DNA from: an uncultured Gemmatimonadota bacterium
GTDB taxonomy: Bacteria > JAAXHH01
Assembly (NCBI GenBank): GCA_951812955.1
Contig: OX638340.1
Location: 2,944,001 to 3,008,000 of the forward strand
DNA: 64,000 nt
Reading direction: 5' to 3'
Below the pieces are notes generated by a model, which was given only the letters and a program-made list of their open reading frames with translations, did not search any database and had not been told where the DNA came from. A program made the translations under genes and the position numbers. Numbering within the stretch: position 1 is the stretch's first letter; each line of letters opens with the position of its first letter. This document shows, one piece after another, positions 1 to 50,000 of this stretch.

Positions 1-3000
1 TTCGAAGGCCTCAAAAGTCCAGTCTACGGTGCCTCGCACGAAGGCCTTCAGCGTTTCCTTGTCCACCACGTCCTGCGCACGCACAGCTGGCGGATCCGGA
101 AGCGTGACTTCTGAAACAGCATCGGGGATATCCATGTTGAAGCCGCCTACCAGGATGAAATCACCCACGCCGAACCCGGATGCGTACGAAGTGGCGTAGG
201 CCACGCGGTTGGGATCGTCATTGGGATCGTTCGGATCATCCCAGGTGAATTCGACGAAACCCCCTCCTGAATTGGCCGCCGCGAGGATCTTCTGAACGAC
301 TTTTTCTCCTTTGTCGTCTTCCAGGTCGCTAATGTCAATGCCGTCGCGGGTCGGGTCGTCGCCGTGGAAGAACATCTCGCCTGCAATCGTCAGGACCGAA
401 AGGTACAGGTCTCCTTGTTTCCAATCGCCTTCGGAACGGAACGCGACACCCAGGGCCGGGAGTTCGTTGGCGTCGGTAATGCGTTCCAGGGAATCGGCCA
501 CAGTTTCGACAAATCCCTTCAGCGTCTCGCGGTCTACTACTTCGCTGGCCACGATCGTTGTTTTTTCCTTCACCGTGATCGTCGCCGACCCGATATCCTC
601 TCCCTCGTAAGTGGCCTTAACCACGATGGTCTCATTGGCGCCGTCGATCACATCATCCACCACGTCGAAGGTGAGCGTGGTGGAAGCCGCGGTGGCATTC
701 CTTGGGATAATGACCTCCAGCGTTCCTTCCACGGTGTAGTCATCGGAAGTGGCCGTACCGTCAAGAGACAGGTTGATGATCGTCGCCACCGGCACCGGGT
801 CATCGGTCAGCGTGGCAGTTACCGTCACTTCCTGGCCGTCACGGCCTTCGACTACGGATTCCGGATCCACGGCCAGCGTGATCTCCGGTACGTCGTCCAC
901 AGGTCTTCGGTAGAAGCCTGCGCCTACGACGAAGGTCTGCCCGGGATAATAATGCGGGAATTCAACCGTTTCGGCATAACTCACCTTGGGCGAACCCAGC
1001 TCTTCATCACCCATAACCGAAGGATCGTCATAGAAGTACTCGACAAAACCACCACCTGCTACCGCGGTATTTATGAGATCTTCGATAAAGCGCTTGCCGT
1101 TCAGGTCTTCGAGATCGATCCGGATCGCACCTTCCTGCGTCATGTCCGCCCCGTGAAAGAACACGTACCCATTCGTTGTAAGAATAAACAGGTAGATGGA
1201 GCCTTCTCTAAATGGTCCGTCTTCTTGCCTCAAAACGGCTGTCAGTGTCCCGGCCTCGACACCATGCGTCTCGAAAGCGGTAAAGGACCATTCGATCGCG
1301 CTTTTCACGAAAGCCTTAAGACTCTCCTTGTCCACCACGTCCCGTGCCTGGACAGCGGGCAAATCGGGCAGCATACCCTCTTCCGGATCGGGAATGTCCA
1401 TGTTGAAGCCGCCCACCAGGATGAAATCACCCGACCCAACAAAACCGGATGTATATCGGACCGCGTAAGCCAGCCGGTTCGGATCATCATTGGGATCATT
1501 CGGATCATCCCAGGCAAAATCTACGAACGCTCCCTCGGCGTCCGCTGAGATGATATCCTGAACTACTTTATTGGCGTTGTCGTCTTCCACATCGCTTATA
1601 TCGAACCCGTCCCGGGTGGGATCGTCACCGTGGAAAATCAATACGCCTTCAGGGGTGAGCACCGAAAGGTACAGGTCTTCATGTTTCCAATCGCCTTCTT
1701 CTCGGAGGACACCCCACAATCGAGGGACCTCGTTGATATCGGTAACCCGTTCGAGAGAATCCGCCACCATGTCGACGAATGCCTTCAATGTCACATCATC
1801 CTCCACGTCAGCGGCCGTAATACGTCCAGTAGCGTCAAGAATCGACAGCGTGTCGGCCGCCACTTCCTCCAGGTCGTGGTTGGCAGTGACGATGATGGTT
1901 TCGCCGTCCGCTTCCGCTACTTCGTTGTCCGCCACGTCGAACGTCAGTTCCGTGGTCCCTTCCGTCATCTCGGCGGGTATCGTGACGACCATCTCGCCGG
2001 TTACTGTGTAGTCGGTGTTCTCCACGGCCGTGCCCGACAGGGTCAGCGGCATTCGAACCGATACGGGCAATGCACCATCGGCCCGGGTTTGCGTAGCCGT
2101 CACGGTCACGGTCGCGGTCTCGCCCTCGGTCAACACATCGGGGTCTGCGGCCAGCTCGATCGTACCCACATGATCTTCAAGTTCGTCGAAGTATAAACCG
2201 GAGCCAATGATGTAATCGTTGCCATGAAACACAAACTCTTCGGCGTAGCTCAACTTCGGCGAACCGGTATCTTCGTCTCCCATGACATCCGGATCGTCAT
2301 AGTGATATTCGACAAAACCGCCACCTGCCTGTGCCGCGGCGATGAGATCCTGGATGAAGTACTTCCCGTTTACGTCCTGTTCATCCCATGCAGACATGTT
2401 CTGCAGGCTGGCGTTGGCTCCATGGAAGAACCAGTCTCCCTCGGTGGTCAAAACGAACAGGTAGGTGTGTTCGTGCCTCCAGGGGCTGCCTTCCTGCCTG
2501 AAAATATCCAGGTTCGCTGACAAGATGTCGAAACCGTATTGTTCGAGGGCTGTCTGGTAAGTGGTGATGGATCCCTCTACGAACTTTACGAGGGTACCCC
2601 GGTCCATCACCTCGGAAGCCGTGACCTCCGGGTGGGGAAGCTCATCCGGATTTATCGTGGGTGTGGGAGGGCTCGAACCGGAAAGATTCTGGCGGAATCC
2701 GCCGACCATGATCACCTTCTGTCCGGTTATACCTGAAGTGTAGCTCACGGCATAGGCAGTTTTAGCGGTATCTTCGTCCCCCTGCTCGTCCGGATCATCC
2801 CAGTAGTAATCGACGAAGTCGCCACCCTCCACGTCCGCGGCCGTTAAGAGCGCTTGCACCACCTTTGTGCCCATCGCATCTTCGACATCAGAGATATTTG
2901 CTGTATTTACCGAGTGGTCATTGGCATGAAGCCATACAATACCGCCCGGCAAAAGGATGATGAGGAAGGTGGTGCCGTCATTCCAGTCTTCCTCGTCGCT

Positions 3001-3240
3001 GATTTTGTGGATCCATCCGCTGATATCGTTCGGATTGGTAACCGCTTCCGCATCGGCCTTCGCATACAGCACGAACTGCTTGAGGGTCGCGTCGTCCATT
3101 ACCTGGCCGGCCGTAATCGGTTCGACCTGGGCAGCAGCCGGCCCTGCTCCAATGAGTAGGCTTACCACACCCATCATTACCCCTAAAACCAGAGTTGATA
3201 ACATCAATCTATCAGAAATAGAGGAACTCATAATTGGCAT
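1..3240 (-). CDS. Secreted multi-repeat protein (5' partial; continues beyond window start): signal peptide followed by tandem sCache_2-like sensor domains and Calx-beta-like domains
   Basis: My own reverse-strand translation gives ATG at 3240 (MPIMSSSISDRLMLSTLVLGVMMGVVSLLIGAGPAAAQ, signal-peptide-like). An internal segment I translated at ~1000-1200 reads YLFILTTNGYVFFHGADMTQEGAIRIDLEDLNGKRFIEDLINTAVAGGGFVEYFYDDP, which matches the sCache_2 consensus (GGGFVeYxWpkP...pKlsY). The + strand ORFs are only mutually similar shadows. The gene is absent from the ORF track because no stop lies in the window. Confidence 0.7.
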   Translation of the reverse strand, partial: MPIMSSSISDRLMLSTLVLGVMMGVVSLLIGAGPAAAQVEPITAGQVMDDATLKQFVLYAKADAEAVTNPNDISGWIHKISDEEDWNDGTTFLIILLPGGIVWLHANDHSVNTANISDVEDAMGTKVVQALLTAADVEGGDFVDYYWDDPDEQGDEDTAKTAYAVSYTSGITGQKVIMVGGFRQNLSGSSPPTPTINPDELPHPEVTASEVMDRGTLVKFVEGSITTYQTALEQYGFDILSANLDIFRQEGSPWRHEHTYLFVLTTEGDWFFHGANASLQNMSAWDEQDVNGKYFIQDLIAAAQAGGGFVEYHYDDPDVMGDEDTGSPKLSYAEEFVFHGNDYIIGSGLYFDELEDHVGTIELAADPDVLTEGETATVTVTATQTRADGALPVSVRMPLTLSGTAVENTDYTVTGEMVVTIPAEMTEGTTELTFDVADNEVAEADGETIIVTANHDLEEVAADTLSILDATGRITAADVEDDVTLKAFVDMVADSLERVTDINEVPRLWGVLREEGDWKHEDLYLSVLTPEGVLIFHGDDPTRDGFDISDVEDDNANKVVQDIISADAEGAFVDFAWDDPNDPNDDPNRLAYAVRYTSGFVGSGDFILVGGFNMDIPDPEEGMLPDLPAVQARDVVDKESLKAFVKSAIEWSFTAFETHGVEAGTLTAVLRQEDGPFREGSIYLFILTTNGYVFFHGADMTQEGAIRIDLEDLNGKRFIEDLINTAVAGGGFVEYFYDDPSVMGDEELGSPKVSYAETVEFPHYYPGQTFVVGAGFYRRPVDDVPEITLAVDPESVVEGRDGQEVTVTATLTDDPVPVATIINLSLDGTATSDDYTVEGTLEVIIPRNATAASTTLTFDVVDDVIDGANETIVVKATYEGEDIGSATITVKEKTTIVASEVVDRETLKGFVETVADSLERITDANELPALGVAFRSEGDWKQGDLYLSVLTIAGEMFFHGDDPTRDGIDISDLEDDKGEKVVQKILAAANSGGGFVEFTWDDPNDPNDDPNRVAYATSYASGFGVGDFILVGGFNMDIPDAVSEVTLPDPPAVRAQDVVDKETLKAFVRGTVDWTFEAFE
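300..3100. repeat. Intragenic tandem DNA repeat, period ~1266 bp (about 2.2 copies in window), inside the Cache/Calx gene
   Basis: Shadow ORFs 311..610 and 1571..2011 (+) share SSSRSLMSMPSRVGSSPWK / SSSTSLISNPSRVGSSPWK at an offset of exactly 1266 nt. ORFs 364.. and 1630.. are likewise offset by 1266. A third weaker copy lies near 3037 (offset ~1296). Confidence 0.75.
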
Positions 3241-3396
3241 CTCCCATCTTTGGATGGAATTTAAGATTCGAAAGTACGATTAAAGTCTGGTTTATGTAGC
3301 AATTGCAGTATGAAATTTCACTTTCTTTCTACGTCAAGTCAAAGTTCGACCTTCATTCAGATTCCATTAGATAGAAATGTAATTTTAATAACTGCT

Positions 3397-4798
3397 TCAA
3401 TCAGGTAACGCCTCGTTGCCGAACCGCTCGATGGCATCCAGGGTCTCCAGGACATCGTCCCATGAAGTGGTGTAGTTTACAATACAGAGTCTCAACGAGA
3501 ACTTCTCCCAGAGATTGGTAGAGGATATGAACGCACGGTCTTCCCAGAAGATGCGGACGAGGACCTTCTTGTTGATTGCGTCCAGGGCGGACTCGTCGAG
3601 GTCTGCATGACCGGGATTGACGCGGAAGCATACGATGCCCAGCGACCCTGGTAACAACATCTCCAAGGTATTGCTGTTCCTGATGTAATCCTCAGCTTGG
3701 GCAGCCAGTTCAAGTCCTTTGGAAACGGCTCGACGGAAGGCCGCCATGCCGAAGATCTGCACGGACATCCAAATCTTCAATGCCCGTACGGACCTGCTGA
3801 GTTGCAGACCTCGGTCGGAGAAATTCGGATGATTCGCCCCCCACACCGTGTCCTGCAGGATATCGTGCCGCACCGCGAAGGCGCGCTCCAGCGTACCGAG
3901 GTCCTTTACCATCAGGCACCCGGCTTCGTATGGCTGGTAAAACAACTTATGCGCGTCCAGGCCGATCGAATCGGCGCGCCCGATGCCTCGCAGAAGAGGT
4001 TTCCCCCGTTCGGTAATGACCGCGAAACCGCCGTAGGCGGCGTCGACGTGGAACCAGATGCCTTCCGCTTCGCATAGATCCGCCATCGTTTCAAGCGGGT
4101 CGATCGCGCCCGTGCTGCTCGCTCCGGCGTTGGCGCATACGGCGACCGGTTTATACCCTGCCGATCGATCCTGTTCTATCGCGTGCTTCAGCGCTTCCGA
4201 ATCAAGACGGTAGCGCGCGTCGGTCTGTATCAGCCGTGCGTTCTCGTCGGGAATGCCGATGATCCTGGCTGCCCGGACCAGTGCGCTGTGACTCTGGTCG
4301 CTCATGTACACGGTAGCGTTGTCGGGATTGCCTGCCGCTTCCCGCGCCGCGACCAGGGCTTCCAGACTGGCCGCAGATCCCCCGCTTGTCATGAGCCCTC
4401 CCGCGGTCTCCGGGTATTCAAGCCATCGCCTGAACCAGTCGATAACGACCAGTTCCATCTGGCTGGCCCCGCTAGAGGTCAACCAGGTGCACTGGTTCAC
4501 CTGGTGCGCGGACACCATGAAGTCGGCGAAGCACCCCGGGCCAGGTCGGCGAAGACGGCATGAACGCAAAAAAACGGGGATGGTCGTTACGGGCGCCGAG
4601 GGGCAGGATCTCCTTCGCCGCCCTTTCAAGGACCTCCGTCGCGGAGCTTCCCTGTTCGGGCGGTTCCTCCATGAGCTGGTCTTCGAGCTCCTTCTTGAAT
4701 TCACCGTCCCAGGCATGTTCTTCAGGGAGCTTCTTGATGCGTTCAACGATCAACTCCGCCGTCTTGTTGGCGAGTTCAAGCATGGTCTCGGGCGACAT
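3397..4798 (-). pseudogene. PLP-dependent group II amino-acid decarboxylase (aromatic-L-amino-acid/tyrosine decarboxylase-like), interrupted by a frameshift near 4530-4545
   Basis: The N-terminal part lies in ORF 4472..5029 (MSPETMLELANK...NDHPRFFAFMPSSPTWPGVL). The rest lies in the +1 frame of ORF 3397..4746 (..ADFMVSAHQVNQCTWLTSSGASQMELVVIDWF... DAHKLFYQPYEAG, which carries the PLP lysine). The frame switch falls at a CCCCGGG run. Confidence 0.6.
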
Positions 4799-5012
4799 CT
4801 GAAGGTCGCCGTTCGATTCAGCGGAAGTGCCTGTGCCATGCCCGCAGCCGGGTTTGGACGGATCGTGTGGAACGGCTATTTTGCCAGGATCGGATCGCAC
4901 GACGATAAATACCCGGGGATTTAGTGAAGCTGGTGTGAAGGTGTTAAAGGGTTGGTAAATCCAAGTATATATATACGAATTCTTGCCAAATAAAACATTT
5001 AAATATCTGTAC

Positions 5013-6260
5013 TTATTCCCACGAATCAAGGTACTCCTTCTGATCCGATGTCATCTTGTCACACGACAAGCCCATGCTTTCGAGTTTCATACCCGCGATA
5101 TCCCTGTCAATTTCTTCGGGAAGCACGTGAATACCCGGGGTCAGATCCTCGTGGCGTTTTACCAGGAACTCGGCGGCAAGCGCCTGGTTGGCGAAGGAAA
5201 GGTCCATCACGGCCGCCGGATGTCCCTCGCCCGCAACGAGATTGACCAAGCGTCCCTCTCCGAGAACGTGCAGTCTCCGGTTGTTTTCGAGCGTGTACTC
5301 CTCGACAAAAGGCCTTGCGGGACGTCGTGCTACCGCCAACTCGTCAAGTGCTTCCAGGTCGATCTCCACGTCGAAATGACCGGCGTTGGCCAGTACCGCG
5401 CCATCTTTCATGGCGGCCAGGTGGTCGCGGTTCACGACGCTTCGATTACCCGTCACGGTAATGAACAGGTCGCCCACTACGGCTGCTTCTTCCATCGGCA
5501 TGACGCGATATCCTTCCATGGCCGCTTCCAGCGCCGGAACGGGATCCACTTCCGTAATGACAACATGCCCACCCAGGCCCCGCACCCGCGAAGCCACGCC
5601 GCGGCCGCACCAGCCGTACCCGCACACCACAACGGTTTTGCCTGCAATCAGAAGGTTTGTTGCCCGTATGACACCGTCCAGCGCGCTCTGTCCCGTTCCA
5701 AAGCGGTTGTCGAACAGGTGCTTGGTTCTTGAATCGTTGACCGCAATCACCGGAAAGGTCAACGCTCCTTCGCGCGCCATGCTTCGCAATCGGCTTATTC
5801 CCGTCGTGGTCTCTTCCGTTCCTCCAATAACCCGTTCCAAGTGCTGTCGGTGACTAAGGTGTGCGGTCGTTACCAGGTCCGCCCCGTCGTCGAGCAGTAT
5901 ATCCGGTTTCGCCTCCAGCACGGTGTGCAGGTGTCTTCTGAAGGTGTCGGCGTCTTCACCCCTTTTTGCGAAAACTGGAATCTCGTGGTGCACGACCAGA
6001 CTGGCCGCTACATCGTCCTGGGTGCTCAGGGGATTGGAAGCGCATACGATCGGTTCCGCTCCACCCGCCTTTATCGCGGTGACCAGATTCGCCGTCTTGG
6101 TCGATATGTGCAGGCACACGCCTATACGCAGGTCTTCGAAAGGCTTTTCATGACAAAAACGGTCTTTAATGGACTGCAACACCGGCATCTGCCGGGCATC
6201 CCACTCCATTCGCGTTGCGCCGGCTTCAGCAAGATTCGGATCGCGGATATCAGGTTTCAT
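5013..6260 (-). CDS. ahcY: Adenosylhomocysteinase (S-adenosyl-L-homocysteine hydrolase)
   Basis: 415 aa; NAD-binding VVCGYGWCGRGVA motif and typical AhcY blocks are conserved across the full length. Confidence 0.92.
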   Translation of the reverse strand: MKPDIRDPNLAEAGATRMEWDARQMPVLQSIKDRFCHEKPFEDLRIGVCLHISTKTANLVTAIKAGGAEPIVCASNPLSTQDDVAASLVVHHEIPVFAKRGEDADTFRRHLHTVLEAKPDILLDDGADLVTTAHLSHRQHLERVIGGTEETTTGISRLRSMAREGALTFPVIAVNDSRTKHLFDNRFGTGQSALDGVIRATNLLIAGKTVVVCGYGWCGRGVASRVRGLGGHVVITEVDPVPALEAAMEGYRVMPMEEAAVVGDLFITVTGNRSVVNRDHLAAMKDGAVLANAGHFDVEIDLEALDELAVARRPARPFVEEYTLENNRRLHVLGEGRLVNLVAGEGHPAAVMDLSFANQALAAEFLVKRHEDLTPGIHVLPEEIDRDIAGMKLESMGLSCDKMTSDQKEYLDSWE

Positions 6261-13758: not shown

Positions 13759-15687
13759 CTAAACGGACACCGGCGCCTCGTGACCACCGTAGCCGAGTGC
13801 TTTCACGTCCCGATGCAGCCGATCGAGCACCCTGGTCCGTACCTCTTCGAACATCTCCCGGGTCAGGAAACTCACGCCGGGCAGGTCGCCCTTGGGCTGA
13901 CCCACGAAAACGTCGGACGGCAGATCGTATTCGGACTCCGTGATCCCCTGTTTCTGTTCGAGGGAAAACCCCAGGATGTGGGCCCGGTAGGTGGCGTCCA
14001 GCACCCGCTCGGCTGAGAAGGGCACGCCGAAAACGGACTCGATGCCTTCGCTGACCTGGTCCGGCGGGGCCATGGTGAACAAACATCCGCCATGCAGGTC
14101 CTTGTTGACCATCTTCCACCCTTCCTCGGTGATGTTGTGGACCCAGTAGTCCGCCGAATCGGGCTTGCAGTCCGGGTCCATCACGTATAGCAGGAAGGTG
14201 CGCATGGACATGTGGCCGCCGGCCACGGCGAAGGGGTAGCCCGGATTGGTCTGTCCCAGATAGGCGGAGAACTCGACCCCTTTGGCATGCATCGCGAAGC
14301 CCTCGCCACCGATCTCTTCGGCAATCACCCGGACACCCTTTCCGAATAGGGGTTCGCGGCCATAGGCGATATCCTCTTTAAGTCGGCGCGCACCTTCCGC
14401 GTCCCCGAAGGTTACGCCGCCCGCAACGGTGCCGTTACCACGGGAATTGTAGTCCATCAGGAAGGAGAGCACGACGTTGGCCGATATGGTATCGAACCCC
14501 AGGTCGTCGTCCAGCCGGGCGAGTTCCAGGTTGTCATGTGGATCCAGGATGCCGAGGTTGGCGCCGGACAGTTCCATGGGCTCGAACTCGAACCGGCCGA
14601 GGTAATCTCCATGGTTCCTCCGGGCCTTGCGCCAATCGGGATCCTTGCCGCCTTCCGGGATGTCGTAGAAGTCCTGGTGGCACGTTATCTGGCAGCCGTA
14701 GCAGCTCTTGTCGATGACGATGAAATCGTCCGATTCCCGCATGGTTTCCAGGTGTACCGGAACGGCCACGTTCTCGCCGGGCGGTTCGAAGTTCCGGTAG
14801 GGCAGCACGCCGAATCCATCGAGGATCTTGCTGTTCTTGCCCGTTCCGCCCAGTCCGTTCCGGTTGTGTGGATGGCGGTAACCCCGGCTCTGCTCGCCCC
14901 GCCCGATCTCGTTGTTGATGACCTTGAGCCGGTCGTCGCCCTTTCGGTAATAGTCCGTTTCCGACCTGGCCACAATGCCGATGATGTTCTTGGAACCGAG
15001 CACCGAGCCCATGCCGAGCCGGCCCGCGAACCGCCACTTGTCTTCCCCGCTCATCAACTGTTCCTGCGTCGATCCGACAATGGCCGCGTACCAGACCGTT
15101 TTCCAGTTTTCACCGGCCGGTCCGACGACGGCGAAATGGGCGTGGTATTCCTTGTCTTCATCGTTGTACTGCTCATCCAGATAGACCATCTTGTCCCGTA
15201 CCCGCGCGCCGACAAGATGTGCCGGGGCTTCGATCAGGGAAATATAGGGGCCGTCACTGGTCTGCTTTATAACCAGGAAGCTGGGACGATCCGCGCGGCC
15301 GGTGAGTATCAGGTCGCCGATGCCGGTATAGGAGAACTTGCGTCCGAAACTCCCGCTCATGGCCGACCAGACGGGCATGGGCTTTCCCGCCCGGGTACGT
15401 TTCAACGGGGAAAAACCCGAGAAATACGCCCGCAGCCCGGTCATGAACTGCGTGCCGGTGAAGCAGCCGGTGTTGATGACCAGCGGGGCATCCGGCGCGA
15501 AGGGATCGCTCACTTCATAGCCCGAGAGGATCTTGAACGACCGGCCGATGCCCCCGAGGAAGTCCATGTCGTCCTTGACCCGAAGGTCGTCGCTTCGGAC
15601 CTCGCGACCGGCGGACAGGTCGTATTCGATGCGGGTGTAGGTATAGTCGGTCACGTCTCCCGGCGTGCCGTTTCCAGGTTTCAGCAC
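13759..15687 (-). CDS. Aldehyde:ferredoxin oxidoreductase family (tungsten/molybdopterin AOR)
   Basis: 642 aa with N-terminal AOR_N and C-terminal AOR blocks (GxGTGKN.., EFS..). Confidence 0.75.
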   Translation of the reverse strand: MLKPGNGTPGDVTDYTYTRIEYDLSAGREVRSDDLRVKDDMDFLGGIGRSFKILSGYEVSDPFAPDAPLVINTGCFTGTQFMTGLRAYFSGFSPLKRTRAGKPMPVWSAMSGSFGRKFSYTGIGDLILTGRADRPSFLVIKQTSDGPYISLIEAPAHLVGARVRDKMVYLDEQYNDEDKEYHAHFAVVGPAGENWKTVWYAAIVGSTQEQLMSGEDKWRFAGRLGMGSVLGSKNIIGIVARSETDYYRKGDDRLKVINNEIGRGEQSRGYRHPHNRNGLGGTGKNSKILDGFGVLPYRNFEPPGENVAVPVHLETMRESDDFIVIDKSCYGCQITCHQDFYDIPEGGKDPDWRKARRNHGDYLGRFEFEPMELSGANLGILDPHDNLELARLDDDLGFDTISANVVLSFLMDYNSRGNGTVAGGVTFGDAEGARRLKEDIAYGREPLFGKGVRVIAEEIGGEGFAMHAKGVEFSAYLGQTNPGYPFAVAGGHMSMRTFLLYVMDPDCKPDSADYWVHNITEEGWKMVNKDLHGGCLFTMAPPDQVSEGIESVFGVPFSAERVLDATYRAHILGFSLEQKQGITESEYDLPSDVFVGQPKGDLPGVSFLTREMFEEVRTRVLDRLHRDVKALGYGGHEAPVSV

Positions 15688-17170: not shown

Positions 17171-18664
17171 ATGTATCATCCCGTTTCCCGCGGAGCCCCC
17201 GTGAACGTCATCTGCATCTGCCTGGACACCTTTCGCGCCGACATCATCGGCCCGGGCAGGAAGTTCAGCCACGCGCACACGCCCAATCTCGACGCTTTCC
17301 ACGGCGGCAGCATCCGGTTCAACCGAGCGTATGGCGAAGGGCAGCCCACGCTGCAGGTCCGCCGCGCGCTGTTCACCGGGATGCGCAGTTTCCCCTGGCG
17401 TTACAACTTCGACCGGCGCGGACACTGGCATCATGCTCCAGGCTGGCACAAGATTCCCCCGGAGCAGGACACGATCGCCGAGGTGCTGCTGGAACGAGGG
17501 TACCTGACGGCCCTCATCGCCGACACCTATCATATGTTCAAGCCCACCATGAACTTTGCCCGGGGATTCGCGCACCTGGATTTTGTGCGGGGGCAGGAAT
17601 CGGACAACTGGAAAAGCGGTGACCCCCGGCTGGTGGAGGCGCAGCTCGCCCGGCACGTCCGGTCGCCCGTGGACATGGCCCGGCACGTGGGACTTGTGAA
17701 CTACCTGCTCAACCAGCGACACCGGAGGGAAAAGGACGACTACCAGTGCGCCCGGGTATTCAATTCGGCCTGCGAGTGGCTGGCCGACAACCATACGGCG
17801 GGGCCCTTCTTCCTGTGGGTAGACAGCTTCGATCCCCACGAGCCATGGGATCCGCCGCCGGAATATGCGGACCGGTACTGCGAGCATGACGGCCTCGATT
17901 TCATCCAGCCCGGCCCCGCTTACAGTAGAGGCGGGCCAGGCGGGGGCGGCCCGGGCGGACCATCGGAAGCGGAACTCAGGCGCATCGAGGCGCTGTACCT
18001 CGGCGAGGTCACCCTCGTGGACGAGTATGTGGGCCGGTTGCTGAACGCGGCCGCGGACCTGAACCTGCTCGATGAGACCATGGTCGTGATTCTGTCGGAC
18101 CACGGCACACAACTGCTGGACCAGGGGAAGTTCGGCAAGGGGCCTGATGAACTGCATCCCTTCAATACCCAGCTCAACCTCATGATGCGGGTACCTGGCG
18201 GGCCCGCGGACCTCGACGTGGACGCCTTCGTGCAAAACCACGACCTCATGCCCACGCTGCTCGGACGGCTCGGGATGCGGGCGGAGTGGACGGACGGGGA
18301 GGACCTGTGGCCGTTGGTCACGGGCGAAAAGGCATCGGTTCGCGACCGCGTGGTGACCGGATGGGCGGGCTTTGTCACGGGGAACGCCGTGGGCAGGGCC
18401 AGCGTCCGAGACGATCGCTGGAACTACTGCACGGCGGTGGGGTACGAGGACGAGGCTGGCGATGAACTCTTCGACCTGGAGGCTGATCCGGAAGAGCGGC
18501 GAAACGTGGCCGGTCTCCATCCAGAGATCGTCGCGGATCGCCGTACCGACGTGGAGGCCGTGATCGGCCAGCCTCTCCCCGGACAGATGGTGGAGGTGTG
18601 CGATGCGGCCCCCGGGCCCATGTCGCACTGGCTGGGACAGTTGCTGAAGAAGAGACAGGGTTGA
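17171..18664 (+). CDS. Sulfatase family protein (alkaline-phosphatase superfamily)
   Basis: ICICLDTFRAD N-terminal motif (C-x-x-x-R-like) and the general arylsulfatase fold. The larger antisense ORF 17168..18850 has arbitrary composition and is a shadow. Confidence 0.7.
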   Translation: MYHPVSRGAPVNVICICLDTFRADIIGPGRKFSHAHTPNLDAFHGGSIRFNRAYGEGQPTLQVRRALFTGMRSFPWRYNFDRRGHWHHAPGWHKIPPEQDTIAEVLLERGYLTALIADTYHMFKPTMNFARGFAHLDFVRGQESDNWKSGDPRLVEAQLARHVRSPVDMARHVGLVNYLLNQRHRREKDDYQCARVFNSACEWLADNHTAGPFFLWVDSFDPHEPWDPPPEYADRYCEHDGLDFIQPGPAYSRGGPGGGGPGGPSEAELRRIEALYLGEVTLVDEYVGRLLNAAADLNLLDETMVVILSDHGTQLLDQGKFGKGPDELHPFNTQLNLMMRVPGGPADLDVDAFVQNHDLMPTLLGRLGMRAEWTDGEDLWPLVTGEKASVRDRVVTGWAGFVTGNAVGRASVRDDRWNYCTAVGYEDEAGDELFDLEADPEERRNVAGLHPEIVADRRTDVEAVIGQPLPGQMVEVCDAAPGPMSHWLGQLLKKRQG

Positions 18665-21914: not shown

Positions 21915-24900
21915 ATGAGTGAAATCGTTACATACCTTGGTGGAAAGACGCTGCTGATTACCGGCGCCACGGGATTCCTCGCGAAAGCGGTCGTGGAAAA
22001 GATCCTGCGGTGCGCGCCGGAGGTCGGCCGCGTATACCTTGTCGTCAGGCCCCGCCGCAAGAAGGACGGCACTACGCTGTCGGCGGCGGAGCGCGTGGAG
22101 GATGAAATACTCCAGTCCGCCGCTTTCGCCCGTTTGCGCGAGATGCACGGCGACCGATTCGCACCATTCATGGCGGAGAAGGTTCATGCTGTCGAGGGGG
22201 ATCTGACCCTGGACCACCTGGGATTGGAGCCGGAACTGTACCGGCTTCTTTCCGAAGAGGTCAATGTCGTAATGACCTGTGCCGCTTCCGTTACCTTCGA
22301 CGAAGAAATCGACGCCGCCCTGCAGCTGAACGCTCTGGGCGCCAGGCGGATGATGGAATTCGCCAGAACGTGCAACCGCGCCATACTCGTCCACGTATCC
22401 ACGGCCTATGTCAATGGCCAGCTCAAGGGGCGCATCCCGGAAGTTCCACCACGGCCGGACTGGTCCATGGCCCAGGAAATGGGGATCAGCGACGCGCCAT
22501 TCGACCTGGAAAAGGAAATCCGGGGTATTTTGGCGAGGGCCGAAGAAATCCATGTTGCGTCACGATCGGCTGTCCAGCAGAAACGGTTCCGTAGGTCAGC
22601 CCTTCAACAGAACGCGCGGCCCACGCAGCGCTGGCTTGACGCCCAGATGGAGACCTTCCGTAAACGCTGGCTGAAGGAACAGCTTATCGAAGAAGGGATG
22701 CGCCGGGGACAGCAGTGGGGCTGGCACGACAGCTACACCTTGACGAAGGCCATGGGCGAACAACTGATCGTCAAGCATCGGGGCGAACTGCCCACGGTCA
22801 TCATTCGTCCGTCCATCGTGGAAAGCAGTCTCGTCGAGCCGGAACCGGGATGGATAGAAGGGCTCAAGGTCGCCGACCCGCTGATCGACGCGGTGAGCAA
22901 GGGCCGCCTGCCGGATTTTCCCGGCGATAAGGACATGATCGTGGACATCATCCCGGTGGACATGGTGGTAAACTCCATGCTGGCCGCCATGGAGCACACG
23001 GTCCGGGAGGGCGGAATCAGCGTGTACCACGTGTCTACGGGCGACCGGAATCCAATCCGATTCCAACAGGCCTTCGAACTTTCCTACGAGTACTTCCTGC
23101 AGCATCCACGCCTGAACCGGAACAACGAACCCATACCCATCCGGCGCTGGACCTATCCGACCCTCGCCCAGTTCAGACGGCGGTACAACCTGCGCTACGT
23201 CTATCCACTGAACACCGCGCTCTGGGTGTTCAACCGCTTCAGCCGCATCACCTTCCTGAATAACTGGAAGCGCAGAATAACCGTGCTGAAATCGGCGATC
23301 TCCCGCATGCTCTACTACGCTTCGATCTACAGTCCCTACACGTCCCTGGAATGCACCTTCGAAACCGGTCGGACGGTCGGCCTGCACGAACGGCTCGGGC
23401 CCGATGACCGGCTGCTGTTCAACGGCGACGTATCCAGAATACAATGGAAGACCTACTTCCAGGATATTCATATTCCAGGGTTGAAGCGCCACGTGTTGAA
23501 GACCGACGAACCCAGGCCCACGGTTACAGAAGAGGAGGAGGTTGCGGAGCGGTCGGGGTTTACCCAGGCGGAGGATGACCCCCTGCCCCACCTCGACACG
23601 TTGACGGATATATTGGCCAAGAGCGCGGATATGTACGGAGACAAGACCGCGATGCAGATGGAGCGTGAGGGGGTATGGGTCCGGTATTCTTTCAAGGACG
23701 TGCACGACCTGGCCGGCCACATGGGCTGGCAATGGCGGTCCGGCGGGCTGCACCCGGGCGACCGCGTCCTGCTGTTTTCGGAAAACAAGCCCGAATGGGG
23801 GATCGCCTGTTTTGCGGGTCTGGTGGCCGGAGCGGTGATCGTGCCCGTAGACCGGCGGTCATCGGCGCAGGAAGTGTGGCGCATTGCCCGGTTCACCGGT
23901 TCGAAGGCTGTCCTGTGTTCGGAAAGCGGTTTCGAGATGCTGAAAGCCTCGGAAGCACCGGACCTGGAGGTCGCTTTCTGGAATATCGACAACTACGGCC
24001 TCCCTTTCGATGCCTCGCGGCCGTCGGCGTCGCCGGTCGCCTTGAACGAGGAACCGCCCGCCTGGGCGCCGGTTCAACCCGATGCGCCGGCCGCCATCAT
24101 GTTTACACGGGGCATGGCTGCGGAGTCGCACGGCGTGGTGCTGTCCCATCGGAATTTCGTATCGAACCTGCTGTCTCTTGCCGAGATTCTGCGCGCCTAC
24201 CGGACCGACCATTTCCTCTCTCTGCTGCCCATGAGCCAGGCCCTCGAGTTCACCGGGGGATTCCTCATGCCCTTCTACGCGGGAGCGACCATTACCTATA
24301 CCGCTTCGGTACGTCCTCGATCCCTGGTCGCCCTGATGGTTGAATCCGAAATCAACTGCCTGATCGCGGCGCCCCGGATTTTCGGACTGATGCACCGGCC
24401 GCTGCAGCGTGCGGCCCGTGAATCGGATACGGACGTGGTTTCCCGCATGCGACTGCTGGTCAGCGGCGGCGGTACGCTCGCGTCGGATCTCTACCACGCC
24501 TACCGCGATTTCGGCCTCACCATACACGAGGGATACGGGCTCACGGAAGCGGCGCCGGTCGTGGCCGTGAACCCCATGGACCGAAGCAAACCGTCCTCCG
24601 TCGGCATCGCCCTTCCGGAGGTCGACGTGCGTATCGCAAATCCCGATGAGGATGGGAAGGGAGAAATCGTCGTGCGCGGGTCGAACGTCATGCTGGGATA
24701 TTTCGAGAACCCGTCGGCGACGGAGCATCGCATCCGCGACGGCTGGCTTCACACGGGGGACATCGGTTACATCGACCGGGACGGCTACTTGTACATCGCC
24801 GACCGCATGGAGCGCAGCCGCGGATCGAAGGATGTACCGGATGGTCGTCCGGGGAACGGCAAGTCCCGCAGCGCCACCGCCTTCTTCGACGTGGACGGAA

Positions 24901-25535
24901 CCATCGTCGACGCCACGATCGTACACTACTACGCCTTTTACAGGACCTGGGGTTATTCCGTTCCGAAGCGTCTGCTTTGGACCCTGGGCTTTCTGCCGAA
25001 GGTCGTCTATTACATGGTGCTGGACAAAATCAGCAGAAGCCGTTTCAACCAGGTCTTCTACAGGCAATACCGGGGATTCGAGCGCGGCGAGTGCGTATCC
25101 CGCAGCGAACGCCTCTTCAACGAAGTCATGCGGCCGCGCATGTTCACCGGCGCCGTCGAACGCATTCGGGAGCATCAGCAAAGAGGCGAGCGCGTGGTCC
25201 TGGTCACCGGATCCCTCGATTTTATCGTGGAACCCCTCGCGGAGTACACCAAGGCCGACGATCTCATCGCCCTGTCCATGAAGGAGGAGAACGGCCGGCT
25301 GACGGGAGAGCCGGAAGGGCCGCCGATCGGCGACGAGGAGAAGGCCCGTATCGTCCGGGATTACGCCGAACGGCGCGGCATCGACCTGGACCGAAGTTAC
25401 GCCTATGCCGACAGCAGATCGGACCGGCCCATGCTGGACCTGGTGGGACACGCCGTCGTGGTGAACCCGGGCGGGAAACTCAGAAAGGCTGCGGAAGCCG
25501 GCGGCTGGGAAGTCGTTAGCTGGACCCACGTATGA
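21915..25535 (+). CDS. Tri-domain fusion: fatty acyl-CoA reductase (NAD_binding_4/male-sterility type) + ANL-superfamily acyl-adenylating domain + HAD-IB phosphatase-like domain
   Basis: N-terminus: LITGATGFLAKAV Rossmann fold and VSTAYV (Y-x-x-x-K) of FARs. Middle: GYGLTEAAPV and LHTGDIGYIDRDGYLYIADR adenylation motifs, but the P-loop is degenerate (FTRGMAAESHG versus TSGTTGxPKG). C-terminus: FFDVDGTIVD DxDGT motif and VLVTGS of HAD-IB. Confidence 0.75.
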   Translation: MSEIVTYLGGKTLLITGATGFLAKAVVEKILRCAPEVGRVYLVVRPRRKKDGTTLSAAERVEDEILQSAAFARLREMHGDRFAPFMAEKVHAVEGDLTLDHLGLEPELYRLLSEEVNVVMTCAASVTFDEEIDAALQLNALGARRMMEFARTCNRAILVHVSTAYVNGQLKGRIPEVPPRPDWSMAQEMGISDAPFDLEKEIRGILARAEEIHVASRSAVQQKRFRRSALQQNARPTQRWLDAQMETFRKRWLKEQLIEEGMRRGQQWGWHDSYTLTKAMGEQLIVKHRGELPTVIIRPSIVESSLVEPEPGWIEGLKVADPLIDAVSKGRLPDFPGDKDMIVDIIPVDMVVNSMLAAMEHTVREGGISVYHVSTGDRNPIRFQQAFELSYEYFLQHPRLNRNNEPIPIRRWTYPTLAQFRRRYNLRYVYPLNTALWVFNRFSRITFLNNWKRRITVLKSAISRMLYYASIYSPYTSLECTFETGRTVGLHERLGPDDRLLFNGDVSRIQWKTYFQDIHIPGLKRHVLKTDEPRPTVTEEEEVAERSGFTQAEDDPLPHLDTLTDILAKSADMYGDKTAMQMEREGVWVRYSFKDVHDLAGHMGWQWRSGGLHPGDRVLLFSENKPEWGIACFAGLVAGAVIVPVDRRSSAQEVWRIARFTGSKAVLCSESGFEMLKASEAPDLEVAFWNIDNYGLPFDASRPSASPVALNEEPPAWAPVQPDAPAAIMFTRGMAAESHGVVLSHRNFVSNLLSLAEILRAYRTDHFLSLLPMSQALEFTGGFLMPFYAGATITYTASVRPRSLVALMVESEINCLIAAPRIFGLMHRPLQRAARESDTDVVSRMRLLVSGGGTLASDLYHAYRDFGLTIHEGYGLTEAAPVVAVNPMDRSKPSSVGIALPEVDVRIANPDEDGKGEIVVRGSNVMLGYFENPSATEHRIRDGWLHTGDIGYIDRDGYLYIADRMERSRGSKDVPDGRPGNGKSRSATAFFDVDGTIVDATIVHYYAFYRTWGYSVPKRLLWTLGFLPKVVYYMVLDKISRSRFNQVFYRQYRGFERGECVSRSERLFNEVMRPRMFTGAVERIREHQQRGERVVLVTGSLDFIVEPLAEYTKADDLIALSMKEENGRLTGEPEGPPIGDEEKARIVRDYAERRGIDLDRSYAYADSRSDRPMLDLVGHAVVVNPGGKLRKAAEAGGWEVVSWTHV

Positions 25536-26805: not shown

Positions 26806-28491
26806 GTGCCCTACCTGAAGATTCTGCGCGCGGAAGTTCCGCAAGTGCATGTCCTCTCAAAGGATGTCACTACCCTGGGCCGTTCCGGGGAAGTCGATAT
26901 GCCCATCAGAGGGGACCGCGGTGTCTCCAAACTCCACGCGCGGATCGAAAGCGAGGCTGCGGGCTACGTGATCACGGACCTGGGCAGCCGGAACGGTACG
27001 TATGTCAACGATCATCCGGTCGCCGGGGAACCCGCCCCGCTGCTTTCAGGCGATCATATCAGGGTCGGACAGACTGTCCTGGTATTTGAAGGGGGAGAAC
27101 CGGATGGGACGCATTCCGCGGGCACGGGAACCGCGGATGCGGAGGCCGTGGCGAGTAAGGACGATCCGCAGGCGCCGGCGTCGCTGTTCCGGGCGGATCA
27201 ACTGCCCTATACGCAGGCTGGCCGCCCGCCCGTCCGTCAGCGTGCAGGCGCGGACAACCACCTGCTGAAGCTGACGGATCTGAGCAAGGCCGTCATGACG
27301 GTGCGCAGCGAAGCGGAACTGGGAGATCTCGTTACCCGGCGCCTGCTCGAGTGGCTGGAGGCCGACTGCTGTGCGATCGTCCATCCCCTGGACACCGAGG
27401 ATGGTTACGACCTCGAGATAAGGTCGCTGGTATCCCGTACCGGAAGAGAAGCCGGCGGCATCTCAATCAGCACCACCGCGGTGAAACAGGCCCTGGAAAA
27501 CCGGATGGCCTCCATCACCACGAATGCCCTGGGGGATGAACGGTTCAGGGACCAGCACAGCGTCATCCTCCGCGGGCTGGCGTCCATTCTGTGCGTACCC
27601 CTGTGGCATGAAGACCGGGTATTCGGTCTGCTGTACCTCGATTCATCGGATCCCGCCGCGCAGTTTACCGTGGATCACCTCGGTCTCGTCAGCGCGGCCG
27701 CCAACCTGGCCGCCATCAAGACCGACAACCTGCGCCTGTTCGACGCGGCCGTCGCCAAGAGCGCGCTGGACAAGGAACTGGCCCTGGCCGGGGAGATTCA
27801 GGCGGGCCTGCTGCCCGGAGAGCGCTACGTGTTCCAACGTCTTGCCTGCGCGGGAAAGCTCCAGTCCTGCGCGGCGATCGGTGGCGACTACTACGATTTT
27901 ATTCCTATTGGCGAGAACGTCCTGACGGTGACGATCGCCGACGTTACCGGACACGGTCCCTCCAGCGCGATGCTCATGGTCGCCTGCAAGACCATGCTGA
28001 CCACCCTCATAGAGATCCGGGTTCCCCTGACGGAACGGGTGACGCGGTTGAATGAATACATGGTCCACCACGCTGCATCCAACCAGTTCATTACTTTCTT
28101 CCACGCCGAAATCGACCTGGAGCACCGGTCGCTGAACTATTGCAACGCCGGCCACAATCCCCCCATGCTCCTGCCGCCCGGCGACGCGCCGCCTGCGAGA
28201 CTGCATTCCGCAGGCCCGCCGTTGGGGATCGTTTCCTGTCCCTTTGACCTGGAGACCGTGGATTTTCCGCCAGGGTCCAGGCTGGTCATGTACACGGACG
28301 GAATCACCGAGGCCTCAGACCCGGAAGGGGTGCTTTACGAGGAAGACCGGCTGGAATCGCTGCTGACAAGGTGTCGCCGGCAGGACGCGGACGCGTTGAA
28401 AAACAGCATCCTGGCGGAACTTCTGGAATTCACCGCGGGACGGGAACAGGATGACGACGTTACCCTGGCCGTAGTGGAATACACCACCTAG
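26806..28491 (+). CDS. FHA-GAF-PP2C (SpoIIE/RsbU-type) serine/threonine phosphatase
   Basis: The N-terminal FHA domain (GRSGEVDMPIRGDRGVSKLHARI... NGTYVN) is followed by a GAF domain and then a PP2C domain (GGDYYDF ... ADVTGHG ... YTDGITE). Confidence 0.8.
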   Translation: MPYLKILRAEVPQVHVLSKDVTTLGRSGEVDMPIRGDRGVSKLHARIESEAAGYVITDLGSRNGTYVNDHPVAGEPAPLLSGDHIRVGQTVLVFEGGEPDGTHSAGTGTADAEAVASKDDPQAPASLFRADQLPYTQAGRPPVRQRAGADNHLLKLTDLSKAVMTVRSEAELGDLVTRRLLEWLEADCCAIVHPLDTEDGYDLEIRSLVSRTGREAGGISISTTAVKQALENRMASITTNALGDERFRDQHSVILRGLASILCVPLWHEDRVFGLLYLDSSDPAAQFTVDHLGLVSAAANLAAIKTDNLRLFDAAVAKSALDKELALAGEIQAGLLPGERYVFQRLACAGKLQSCAAIGGDYYDFIPIGENVLTVTIADVTGHGPSSAMLMVACKTMLTTLIEIRVPLTERVTRLNEYMVHHAASNQFITFFHAEIDLEHRSLNYCNAGHNPPMLLPPGDAPPARLHSAGPPLGIVSCPFDLETVDFPPGSRLVMYTDGITEASDPEGVLYEEDRLESLLTRCRRQDADALKNSILAELLEFTAGREQDDDVTLAVVEYTT

Positions 28492-47098: not shown

Positions 47099-50000
47099 TC
47101 AGTTGAAAACGAACTCGGTCCACAGCCCGCCGCCTCGCCGAATCCGTTTCTGCCGGGTGATTACATTCAGCGTATTCGTAAACTCGAGCGTGACGCCGCC
47201 GCGGATGTACCTGCTGAACCGATAGTCCGTCGTGACCGAGAACCGGTTCTGATTCTGTCCGTTGCTGGGTTGGAAATCGCCGGCTATCCGCGATATAAGC
47301 GTCTCGTTGGTATTCCGGGTGTATTGCAGCCGGGCGTTAATGTCCCCGCTCGTCCGCTTCCCGAAGATCCGGATACCGGACCTGAGCCGGTAGTCCACCG
47401 CGACAGTGAGTGACCTGTTCTGCTGTTTCTGGTCGGTCGCGTTCCGTCCGAACTCGGTCAATCCGTCTAATGTTGTAAAGTTGCCTCGAATCACCACGCC
47501 CGCGTTCAGATCGAAGACGAAGCCGATCAGAGGAGACAGGGAAGTCGTGGTCGTCCGGGTGATACCGGCTTCACCAGGGTCCGTATCTCCCGCAGACCCC
47601 TGCGCGACCGCGGGGGCCACCTGCCCCAGGTCGGTGTTCTTCCCCTTGCGTCTCGAGTACCCGCTGGACAGTTCGATGCGGCGGAAGCTCCGGCCGAAGT
47701 CGCCCATGCTCCTGAGATTGGGACTCCACCGCAGGTTTACTTCAGGCCATGTGGTGTTATTCTGCTTCCGGTTCAGATTTGAGGACCGGTTATGGGTCGA
47801 CACCCACGTGGGCCGGATGGACAGGGTCGCGCCGCGTAACCGGATTCCCGTTCCCAGGTTGAAGGAAGACCGGTTCGCTTCCGACTCCTGGTTACGCTGG
47901 ATGCCGGTAACTCCGCCACCGGACCCCAGGGTATCGAACAGTACCGAGAAACTATCCGACAGCCCCATGCGTTCCCGCAAGGTCGGGCGGGATACCGCGT
48001 TGAAGAAGTTCTGGTTGCGGCTGATCGTGTAGTTCAGTGTGACCGGCGTGAAGTTACTCAAGACTGCGGCAAGCCGGTCCGACACGTTTCGTCGGAACCA
48101 TCCTGCGTCTTCTGGACTCGATCGTCGAGAAGATTCCCCGAGGACGTTCGATACCATTCTAGCCAAATTGACGTTCGTTCGCACGCCCTGCTGGTTGCTG
48201 AACGTGATGGTCCGCGCGCTTGGAGAAGCTCCGACAAGTTGCAACTGTGGATTCCGGTTCTCCGCGTAAGACGTGGTAAAGTTGTAGGACGGCCTGAACC
48301 AGGTCGTGATACCGGGACGATAGTCGACACCCAGGTTCTGGCGGTAGCTGGTTTCTGGACCGAATTCCAGCTTGGTAAAAGATACGGTGGAATCGGATTT
48401 CATGTCGTTGGAAACCGCGAGGTTGTAATTCATCCTCAAGGATCCGAAAGGTTCCATGATTGCCCGGATATTTCGGTTTAGATACCTGATGAAACGTTCG
48501 CCGCGGTCCGTACTTGCCGCCTCCGTTTCACCGGTGTTTCCGGCCACGACGGACTGCCTCGCCCTGTTGAGGTAGATCCGCCTGTCGCGATTTACTTCCG
48601 AGAACAACTCCAGTCGTACGGGCAGCGGGTTGAAAGTCAGTCCTGAAATAGACTCCGGCAATGGCATCCATCTTAGAATCGGCCACTGGATCTTAGAGCG
48701 CGGGGTCAGGTTGTAATGCAGTCGGGCCCGGTAGGAGCCGGACGTATCGATCCTGGAGACCGAGTGACGGAAATAACTGGTCGACGTGAAATCGAACCGG
48801 AATCGCTCCAGGGTCCAGGCGACGAAGGGATTCCTTGAACCGATACGCTTGGAGAAAGAAGCCGAAAACGAGCGGTCGTTGTTCTCCGTGCGCTGCGCTT
48901 CACGCTGTTCCTGGTTCAACAGGACGATATCGGACCCTACCTGCAACCGCGGCAGCCTCAGGTCGTTCTTCCAGCGGAGACGGAGTGGAATGGACAGTCC
49001 CCAGTCTTCCGGCAGCATGTTTCCCAGATTCAACAGGGAGGAAAAGTTTATCAAAGTGGATCTGCTCCCTGATTCTTCACCGCCAATCCTGCGGAAGTGA
49101 CTGCCCACGCTTCTGACGGTTCCGAACACTGATAAAACGTCGGCGAGATCGGCGTCGAACTTCAGTCGGCCGGCAAGTCCCCGGTCGCGCCTGACATCGC
49201 CCGCCCTCAGTTCGTCCAACCAGAGCTCACCTCCCACCAGAACCTGGTCGTAAGGATTGTAAATCCCCACTGTGATATGGCGAACACGGGCCAGGGCGGG
49301 TGAACCCAGAACCCTGTACTGCCTGTTTCCCTCCAGTTCGACTATGGCCAGCGTAAGCCCCTCATTTCGAGGACCATCCTTGAATCGCACGGGACGTGAA
49401 ATCCCGTCGCTCAGCGTAACCGCATAGGTCGTATCCGTTGTCGTCACCGTCCTCCGCGCTGTTTCCGTTTCGCTCTTGAGGACCGTCAGATCGTCGAAAA
49501 CGACCCTGAGATGGTTCGCTTCGTCCCATCCGGGCAAGACACGCGTCCGATATTCGTAATAGTCGAATTCTCCGCTTCCGAATCGAATAAAAAACTCGGG
49601 CGATCGGCCTGGTTCGAAGTTGTCCGAGCCGTGAATGTAAAGCCGCAGCGTGTTGTAGAGCGTATAGTCCTGATCGGAAAACAGCGTACGATAAGCCTGT
49701 GCGCTGTGGTGCGGCTGCAGGTTGGTATAGGTGATGATCAGGGACTGTTCCTTGTTCTGGAGGCCGGTCACCCGGTCGTACTCGATGATCGCACCGGGAG
49801 GCGACGTATATTCACCCGGATTGTCGTATGTGTTCTTCACGGCGACATCGAAAGTCTCTCCGGCGGCGGACAACGCGGAAGCAGGAACCGGATTGCCGGT
49901 GGAATCGGTTATCGCCCCGGTAAAGTCTTCCTGCCATTGGTTGCCGACGATATTGATGGAGGCGATACGCGTTTTTACCGGCTCGTCCACCTCCGTGATC

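Follow-up and report, generated by a model that had tools for sequence, protein, structure and literature searches.

In eukaryotes, extracellular Cache domains act as ligand-binding modules with no transmitter domain of their own in the alpha2-delta subunits of calcium channels and in CACHD1; these domains are of the dCache_1 type, come with a VWA domain, occur in single copy and are anchored in an unrelated way. In bacteria, the described domains closest to those reported here are the sCache_2 domains of chemoreceptors and sensor kinases: PscD-SD (PDB 5G4Y), Adeh_3718 (4K08), the V. parahaemolyticus domains 4EXO and 2QHK, TlpB (3UB6), CtpM and MctS. PscD-SD binds the carboxylate through Tyr90, His103, Tyr143 and Lys156 and sandwiches it between Trp92 and Trp145, and Tyr90, His103 and Lys156 form a general carboxylate signature of sCache_2 domains (PMC5062169). 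Here we describe a gene with tandem sCache_2 domains at the left end of a 64,000-nt stretch of DNA (the window) from an uncultured Gemmatimonadota bacterium (assembly GCA_951812955.1, contig OX638340.1, positions 2,944,001 to 3,008,000). Its closest homologue, P0001, ends in an autotransporter barrel.

The gene shares with type Va autotransporters (BrkA, EspP, Hbp, NalP, AIDA-I, EstA) a Sec signal peptide and a cysteine-free passenger and, in the orthologue P0001, a helix ahead of the C-terminal β-domain, a terminal aromatic residue and a PF03797 match above threshold. Unlike theirs, its passenger is an array of Cache, Calx-beta-like and Big_2 domains, and neither a β-helix (typical, though not obligatory) nor a single enzyme as in EstA. 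The orthologue further differs in a ~70-aa disordered linker, in a β region of ~363 aa with ~18 predicted strands, and in the strong divergence of its barrel. Classical type Va barrels have 12 strands and span ~250-280 aa. With the sCache_2 sensors the modules share Pfam family and alignment, and the B units described below retain the Tyr/His/Tyr/Lys contacts and the aromatic sandwich. In contrast to those sensors, the protein has no flanking transmembrane helices or transmitter, carries up to ~7 copies per chain as cargo of a secretion system, has an acidic GDE(D/E) insertion before the pocket Lys and includes altered A-type pockets (F/Y; I/V/S; F/Y; D/W; K/R). Gram-negative fibrillar and repeat adhesins are similar in their tandem immunoglobulin (Ig)-like spacers, acidity, strain-variable repeat number and surface anchor, but here the putative binding domains lie inside the repeated unit. 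No description of Cache as an adhesin head was found in the literature searched.

The architecture of the gene is well supported. From it we infer a function: with reasonable probability, the product is a type Va autotransporter that serves as a non-signalling, multivalent, surface-displayed binder of carboxylate-bearing ligands.

On the minus strand, an open frame extends from the left window edge (position 1) to a stop at 3279. The probable start is the ATG at 3231 (MSSSISDR...), which has a GGGAG Shine-Dalgarno motif 9 nt upstream and agrees with the N-termini of homologues; the other possible start, ATG 3240, would have zero spacing to that motif. We found 92 homologous proteins for this frame and none for the plus-strand frames. 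The plus-strand open reading frames (ORFs) over 1-3300 (e.g. 364-1548; up to 394 aa) are thus shadow ORFs opposite the real gene, as an earlier reading made from the sequence alone (the sequence-only reading) had proposed; they arise from coding DNA that is rich in GC and contains repeats. At the N-terminus, a basic n-region is followed by ~20 hydrophobic residues and an AxA/Q site (slash, cleavage position) that is also present in P0002, P0003 and P0007, in line with the signal peptide predicted earlier on this strand. No internal hydrophobic segment occurs in the ~1080 aa encoded within the window. The passenger has a pI of ~4.05 and zero cysteines. Recent horizontal transfer is not suggested, because the GC content of the gene (0.55-0.58) is near that of its flanks (0.58-0.63). 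The features of the locus are as follows.

1-3231, minus strand: Cache-array autotransporter gene, 5' part (~1077 codons); the gene continues past the left window edge.
3241-3396, minus strand: AT-rich intergenic region 5' of the gene, presumed promoter (from composition).
3130-3231, minus strand: putative Sec signal peptide (MSSSISDRLMLSTLVLGVMMGVVSLLIGAGPAAA/Q), from sequence features and AxA/Q in orthologues.
2683-3117, minus strand: Cache A1, sCache_2 of A-type, pocket F-I-H-Y-W-K (from Pfam sCache_2, domain map and pocket positions).
2185-2625, minus strand: Cache B1, sCache_2 of B-type, Y/H/Y/K carboxylate tetrad complete.
1834-2163, minus strand: beta module 1, Ig-like sandwich, divergent Calx-beta relative.
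1393-1821, minus strand: Cache A2, A-type, pocket Y-S-H-F-W-R.
904-1353, minus strand: Cache B2, B-type, tetrad complete, GDEE loop insertion.
565-885, minus strand: beta module 2, the module that was modelled (pLDDT 91.6).
127-555, minus strand: Cache A3, 68.5% aa identity to A2, pocket Y-S-H-F-W-R.
1-84, minus strand: Cache B3, start only, the module being cut by the window edge.
522-1787, minus strand: complete 1266-nt unit that is absent from L001, the contig encoding P0001 (in-frame indel, from alignment to L001).

Direct DNA repeats with a constant offset of 1266 or 1269 nt run throughout window 1-3000, in eight families of 32-157 nt and 70-93% identity, which agrees with the ~1266-nt tandem repeats first noted. 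Module boundaries were taken from mapping with local hidden Markov models (HMMs), used in place of self-BLASTP of the fragment, which gave the identity match alone. The module order in the window is SP-A1-B1-b1-A2-B2-b2-A3-B3 (partial), where SP is the signal peptide, A and B are two sCache_2 subtypes ~32% identical to one another, and b is a beta module of ~108 aa. The unit is therefore two Cache domains plus a β-sandwich, as had been read from the sequence: CacheA-CacheB-beta measures 422 aa, or 1266 nt, and 2.5 units lie inside the window.

The sequence-only reading had also called the repeats near-identical and a likely hotspot for assembly collapse. Neither description fits. At the DNA level, copy 3 is 73% identical to copy 2 and copy 2 is 58% identical to copy 1, and the longest exact run common to copies is 18 nt. 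Amino acid identities are 68.5% for A2 and A3, 42% for A1 and A2, 47% for B1 and B2, and 42% for b1 and b2. Tandem Repeats Finder reported no repeat in the gene, because the period exceeds 500 and the copies have diverged. The copies are too diverged for k-mer collapse, and an assembly collapse or artefact was rejected for this window given the low repeat identity, the 18-nt longest run and an independent assembly that is 100% identical over 1.5 kb.

Pfam sCache_2 (PF17200) matched five stretches of the translation (E 1.9e-64; 216.7 bits against a cut-off of 25), with dCache_2 matches overlapping on the same modules. A profile of the B units matched solved sCache_2 domains at E 9e-18 to 1e-8 (2QHK, 8.8e-18; 4EXO, 1.6e-17; 4K08, 1.1e-15; 5G4Y, 3.3e-12; 3UB6, 1.3e-8), so the sCache_2 assignment first made from the sequence stands. 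The nearest NCBIfam families, the MctS kinase and the CtpM chemoreceptor, matched far under their cut-offs and through their Cache parts only.

In the alignment to 5G4Y, the conserved Y, aromatic, H, Y, aromatic and K of the family fall on PscD Tyr90, Trp92, His103, Tyr143, Trp145 and Lys156. The pocket is nearly invariant in the 137 distinct B units counted family-wide: the Tyr90 position is Y in 136, the His103 position H in 126, the Tyr143 position Y in 136 and the Lys156 position K in all 137, and an aromatic residue (F, W or Y) occupies each sandwich position in at least 133. B units also have a 4-residue insertion, GDE(D/E), before the G-S-P-K that holds the pocket Lys, with D in 130 of 137. 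The 84 A units all keep H at the His103 position. Their other positions read F (60) or Y (23) for Tyr90; I, V or M for Trp92; Y (75) or F (7) for Tyr143; D (44) or W (37) for Trp145; and K (63) or R (16) for Lys156. Within the window, A1 has the pocket F-I-H-Y-W-K, and both A2 and A3 have Y-S-H-F-W-R. Because these two pockets differ from the B tetrad, one chain carries about three pocket types and hence probably about three binding specificities, in several copies. Ligand binding by the Cache modules is a prediction from these sequences.

Since the 3' end of the gene lies outside the window, it was examined through L001. This contig is syntenic with the window (YdjM, Maf, D-Tyr deacylase, MatE, AdoHcyase and a pyridoxal phosphate (PLP) decarboxylase, all upstream), shows ~100% nt identity to window 3300-1790 and 96-99% to window 521-1, and encodes P0001 (1703 aa), the closest of the 92 homologues. 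P0001 has the architecture A-B-b-A-B-b-B-b followed by a ~560-aa tail with Pfam matches to Big_2 (E 1.7e-7) and to the Autotransporter beta-domain (PF03797; 34.9 bits, cut-off 26). Pfam finds no HAMP, MCPsignal, HisKA or other signalling output in full-length P0001, and none is listed among the 92 homologues; likewise, the ~1080 aa of the window contain no transmembrane or transmitter domain. A standard chemoreceptor or kinase output downstream, which by the sequence-only reading would have made this a conventional though large sensor, is thus absent from the orthologue.

Because NCBIfam and PDB sequence searches with the P0001 tail came up empty, it was modelled with AlphaFold2 (AF2) from 38 aligned tails (mean predicted local distance difference test (pLDDT) score 70.7). 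In the model, residues 1-88 form an Ig-like domain, residues 90-121 a helix, the ~70 aa after the helix a disordered linker, and residues 198-560 the β region. The 16 best PDB matches to its fold are, without exception, type Va β-domains (BrkA, Hbp, NalP, EspP, EstA, AIDA-I, AaaA), with BrkA at a target-normalised template-modelling (TM) score of 0.79-0.81 and a root-mean-square deviation of ~3.5 Å. About 262 columns of the β region align to 12-stranded barrels. The last residue of the tails is F or W (F in the P0001 clade), and the barrel tail is found in 48 of the 89 homologues with a scorable tail, including Acidobacteriota proteins ending ...LRW. The β region (tail residues 198-560 of P0001, from L001 10001-15112) has an extra C-terminal part of ~115 aa, which is kept in all barrel-type relatives. 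Judged from this orthologue and its model, the window gene most likely encodes a classical (type Va) autotransporter with an unusual passenger. As such a C-terminal barrel implies outer-membrane anchoring and surface display, the passenger is most likely displayed at the cell surface, and not soluble or periplasmic as was first suggested.

The window and L001 alleles differ by one unit. Window 522-1787 aligns to L001 only paralogously (73-85%), and in L001 the reading frame passes directly from the head of A2 into the body of A3 at GATTCTCT/GGAACGC. Exact microhomology between the two window copies at this junction is limited to ~2 nt. Because a k-mer assembler would be unable to make a join with ~2 nt of identity, the one-unit difference is, on this alignment, real: near-identical strains differ by an in-frame indel. 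No unit in the 92 homologues exceeds 72% identity to the extra unit. This marks it as an old paralogue and for that reason favours loss in the L001 lineage. Proteins of the family have one to six recognised Cache units; the window allele, projected as L001 plus the extra unit, would carry seven. The whole protein, whose N-terminal half lies in the window, would then be about 2100 aa, which is large but not the giant protein first claimed.

A different irregularity was seen in P0002 (L025 7001-12976), in which two 422-aa units are identical and the barrel is missing from the end. PF03797 is found instead in an ORF of its own (466 aa), ~600 nt downstream in L025 and beside an rve transposase fragment, and the P0002 gene is either disrupted or mis-assembled. 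Cache-array genes are liable to truncation or splitting in annotation, P0002 being an example.

The beta module had been assigned to Calx-beta. Pfam Calx-beta (PF03160, cut-off 27 bits) gave no match at E <=1 for the whole fragment or at E <=10 for isolated modules, which matched only Big_9 weakly, and a profile of 30 beta modules found nothing among PDB sequences. The AF2 model of the module is an Ig-like sandwich (pLDDT 91.6). Calx-beta structures (NCX1 CBD1/2, CALX CBD1/2, integrin beta4) are the most recurrent family among its top 50 fold matches, at E ~1e-4 and TM ~0.6, although the scores of unrelated Ig-like sandwiches are just as good. The decisive link came from a database search, in which the module profile reached three short proteins, P0109, P0112 and P0115 (E 3e-11 to 8e-6), to which hhalign matched it at 98.2%, 98.1% and 96.9% probability, respectively. 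In P0115 the profile aligns to residues 64-161 (hhalign E 1.5e-10), where Pfam places Calx-beta at 58-159. Pfam Calx-beta scores 42.1 bits in P0115 and 25.5 and 25.8 bits in P0109 and P0112. D80 and E87 are conserved in the module, and GTA..DY and DD.v.E..E, which we take to be motifs of the Calx-beta family, occur in it in equivalent order. Because its profile aligns to regions that Pfam annotates as Calx-beta, we regard the module, on profile and fold evidence, as a divergent, remote Calx-beta relative. The earlier assignment therefore holds at superfamily level, and not as a direct family match. In its Ig-like sandwich and profile links the module is like the Calx-beta domains of NCX1 (CBD1/CBD2), CALX, integrin beta4 and bacterial repeat proteins, but it lacks a direct Pfam or PDB sequence match of its own.

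Relatives carry the A-B Cache pair on tails other than the barrel. P0022-type proteins join it to a type A sorting domain of the type IX secretion system (T9SS; TIGR04183, E 1e-10), which is not present in the P0001-type tail. Other proteins have a PKD tail or a 498-aa tail of no recognised family, and some, P0042 and P0048 among them, have further divergent Cache domains only; these two terminate in GSGYNP and lack a recognisable anchor. The ~498-aa tail is conserved in a large Acidobacteriota-type group (P0053, P0061 and others) and ends YIPARE; it has no Pfam or NCBIfam match and no match to the barrel-tail HMM. Single cases fuse B-type Cache units to ANF_receptor/Peripla_BP_6 (P0089) or to SBP_bac_3 (P0092), hinting at a solute-capture context for the B-type Cache. 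Judged by domain composition, the pair has been joined independently, in the T9SS and solute-binding fusions, to modules for export, display or solute capture. The NCBI pipeline labels the relatives 'autotransporter domain-containing' or 'cache domain-containing' protein. Carriers are metagenome-assembled genomes (MAGs) of Gemmatimonadota, Latescibacterota, Acidobacteriota/Bryobacterales, Rhodothermales and Nitrospirales, several of which are presumably, from their accessions, from marine-sponge microbiomes.

A 2100-aa ORF at window 47099-53401 on the minus strand matches SprA_N (PF14349, E 4.8e-18) and corresponds to the T9SS translocon SprA. The organism thus has a T9SS, which fits the relatives that export the Cache pair by a T9SS sorting domain.

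Taken together, these data suggest the following model. The protein would be exported by Sec and its signal peptide cleaved, after which the C-terminal β-barrel would insert in the outer membrane and the passenger would be threaded to the cell surface, as a beads-on-a-string array and not a β-helix. For the window allele the projected order is SP-(CacheA-CacheB-CalxBeta-like)x3-CacheB-CalxBeta-like-Big_2-helix-barrel. Each Cache module would be an sCache_2 ligand-binding domain, the B-type with the complete carboxylate pocket of chemoreceptor sensor domains and the A-type with two altered pocket versions, giving about three specificities per polypeptide in several copies. The Calx-beta-like and Big_2 domains, very acidic and free of Cys, may act as spacers, possibly stiffened by Ca2+. 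Because it has neither a transmembrane helix nor a transmitter domain, the protein is predicted not to signal. Candidate ligands are small metabolites and the acidic end groups of molecules in a host or matrix, and the role would be capture and/or adhesion: fusions to solute-binding domains and the closed-in pocket speak for small ligands, and the anchor, spacers and copy-number variation speak for adhesion. Unit number would change by in-frame recombination between diverged repeats.

This multivalent binder or adhesin, an idea already present in the sequence-only reading, remains the best explanation, but others were considered. The great majority of Cache domains belong to signal-transduction proteins, MctS (a kinase) and CtpM (a chemoreceptor) are the nearest curated families, and the C-terminus lies outside the window, so that the window allele might be a conventional large sensor ending in a transmembrane segment and a methyl-accepting chemotaxis protein, kinase or cyclase output. 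We consider this extremely improbable, since L001, syntenic and 96-100% identical in the flanks, ends in a barrel, signalling output is listed in 0 of 92 homologues while 48 of the 89 scorable ones have the barrel tail, and the 1080 aa contain zero internal hydrophobic segments. Little more can be said for a periplasmic or released soluble Cache array that buffers or sequesters metabolites or signals. The all-Cache relatives without a recognisable anchor (P0042 and P0048, ending GSGYNP) speak for it, and autotransporter passengers are sometimes cleaved and released; however, the clade has a conserved ~560-aa tail with a barrel and terminal F, and a barrel with an upstream helix is a hallmark of outer-membrane translocation, making such an array improbable.

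A fibrillar adhesin in the strict sense, in which Cache and Calx-beta-like domains form a stalk or lectin-like heads that bind a host or matrix polymer by avidity, is a likelier alternative. The barrel anchor, the tandem Ig-like spacers, the unit-number variation between strains and the extremely acidic, Cys-free passenger all suit it, as do the Big_2/cadherin-like and leucine-rich repeat proteins encoded next to the L025 gene and the occurrence in MAGs of uncultured, presumably sponge-associated Gemmatimonadota, Latescibacterota and Acidobacteriota. Yet the residues that contact a small carboxylate are nearly invariant, and the known pocket is closed and flat-packed by aromatics (PMC5062169), a poor fit for a polymer unless a terminal acid group inserts. 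The solute-binding-domain fusions also point to solute capture. We therefore rate the strict adhesin as possible but rather unlikely, and prefer the surface-displayed binder of carboxylate-bearing ligands.

Several observations weigh against the preferred binder. The barrel is outside the window and is deduced from L001, whose allele is one unit shorter, and a search for the window's long allele in JGI metagenome contigs (exact 37-mer; wobble-N pattern) gave no match. The P0001 barrel is divergent, with no NCBIfam or PDB sequence match; its β region has ~18 predicted strands (DSSP on the model) over 363 aa, not 12, and the confidence of the tail model is low in parts. Conserved pocket residues might in part reflect fold constraints. 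The sCache_2 pocket is small and enclosed, which fits small molecules, and there is no obvious gain from capturing those at the surface. Finally, the PLP decarboxylase and PhyH dioxygenase genes next to the array give no clear functional link; as both are below all equivalog cut-offs, no pathway is claimed.

We found no paper on Cache domains as autotransporter or T9SS passengers in the literature searched, nor anything relevant to the combination of sponge, Gemmatimonadota and autotransporter. What appears new is a class of autotransporter passenger and a non-signalling context for the Cache domain. More broadly, and tentatively, Cache, which is known as the main extracellular input module in bacterial signalling, may have been recruited for non-signalling, multi-copy, multi-specificity surface arrays through at least two secretion systems (a type V barrel and a T9SS sorting domain). 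In uncultured Gemmatimonadota, Latescibacterota and Acidobacteriota, which are probably host-associated, such arrays would form an 'antenna' for metabolite capture or for ligand-dependent adhesion, with valency tuned by gain and loss of units. Should the arrays prove to bind ligands on the cell surface, Cache domains would have a role in capture or adhesion as well as in signalling. For protein secretion, they would add a class of non-β-helical autotransporter passenger and of T9SS cargo. The one unit by which near-identical strains differ is a concrete example of valency evolving through in-frame recombination of diverged repeats. Each chain also offers several compact, naturally soluble sCache_2 domains with complete pockets, suited to ligand screening. 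The arrays could also reveal which metabolites or host molecules uncultured bacteria hold at their surface.

The remaining observations concern the surroundings of the gene. No tRNA, rRNA or Rfam family reached gathering score in the whole window. The following other genes were recognised.

13759-15687, minus strand: tungsten-type aldehyde:ferredoxin oxidoreductase.
17171-18664, plus strand: sulfatase.
21915-25535, plus strand: fatty-acyl reductase/AMP-binding/HAD fusion, 1206 aa.
26806-28491, plus strand: FHA-GAF-SpoIIE phosphatase.

A group II PLP decarboxylase is encoded immediately upstream of the array gene in the window, L001 and L025. It is also upstream in L022 and L024, where a PhyH gene lies between it and the autotransporter gene. 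In the window, the PLP decarboxylase (minus strand; 4472-5029 and 3397-4746) has a 1-nt insertion relative to L001 at ~4529/4530, in a CCCGGGG run. The insertion splits the gene into two overlapping frames and is either a sequencing error or the mark of a pseudogene.

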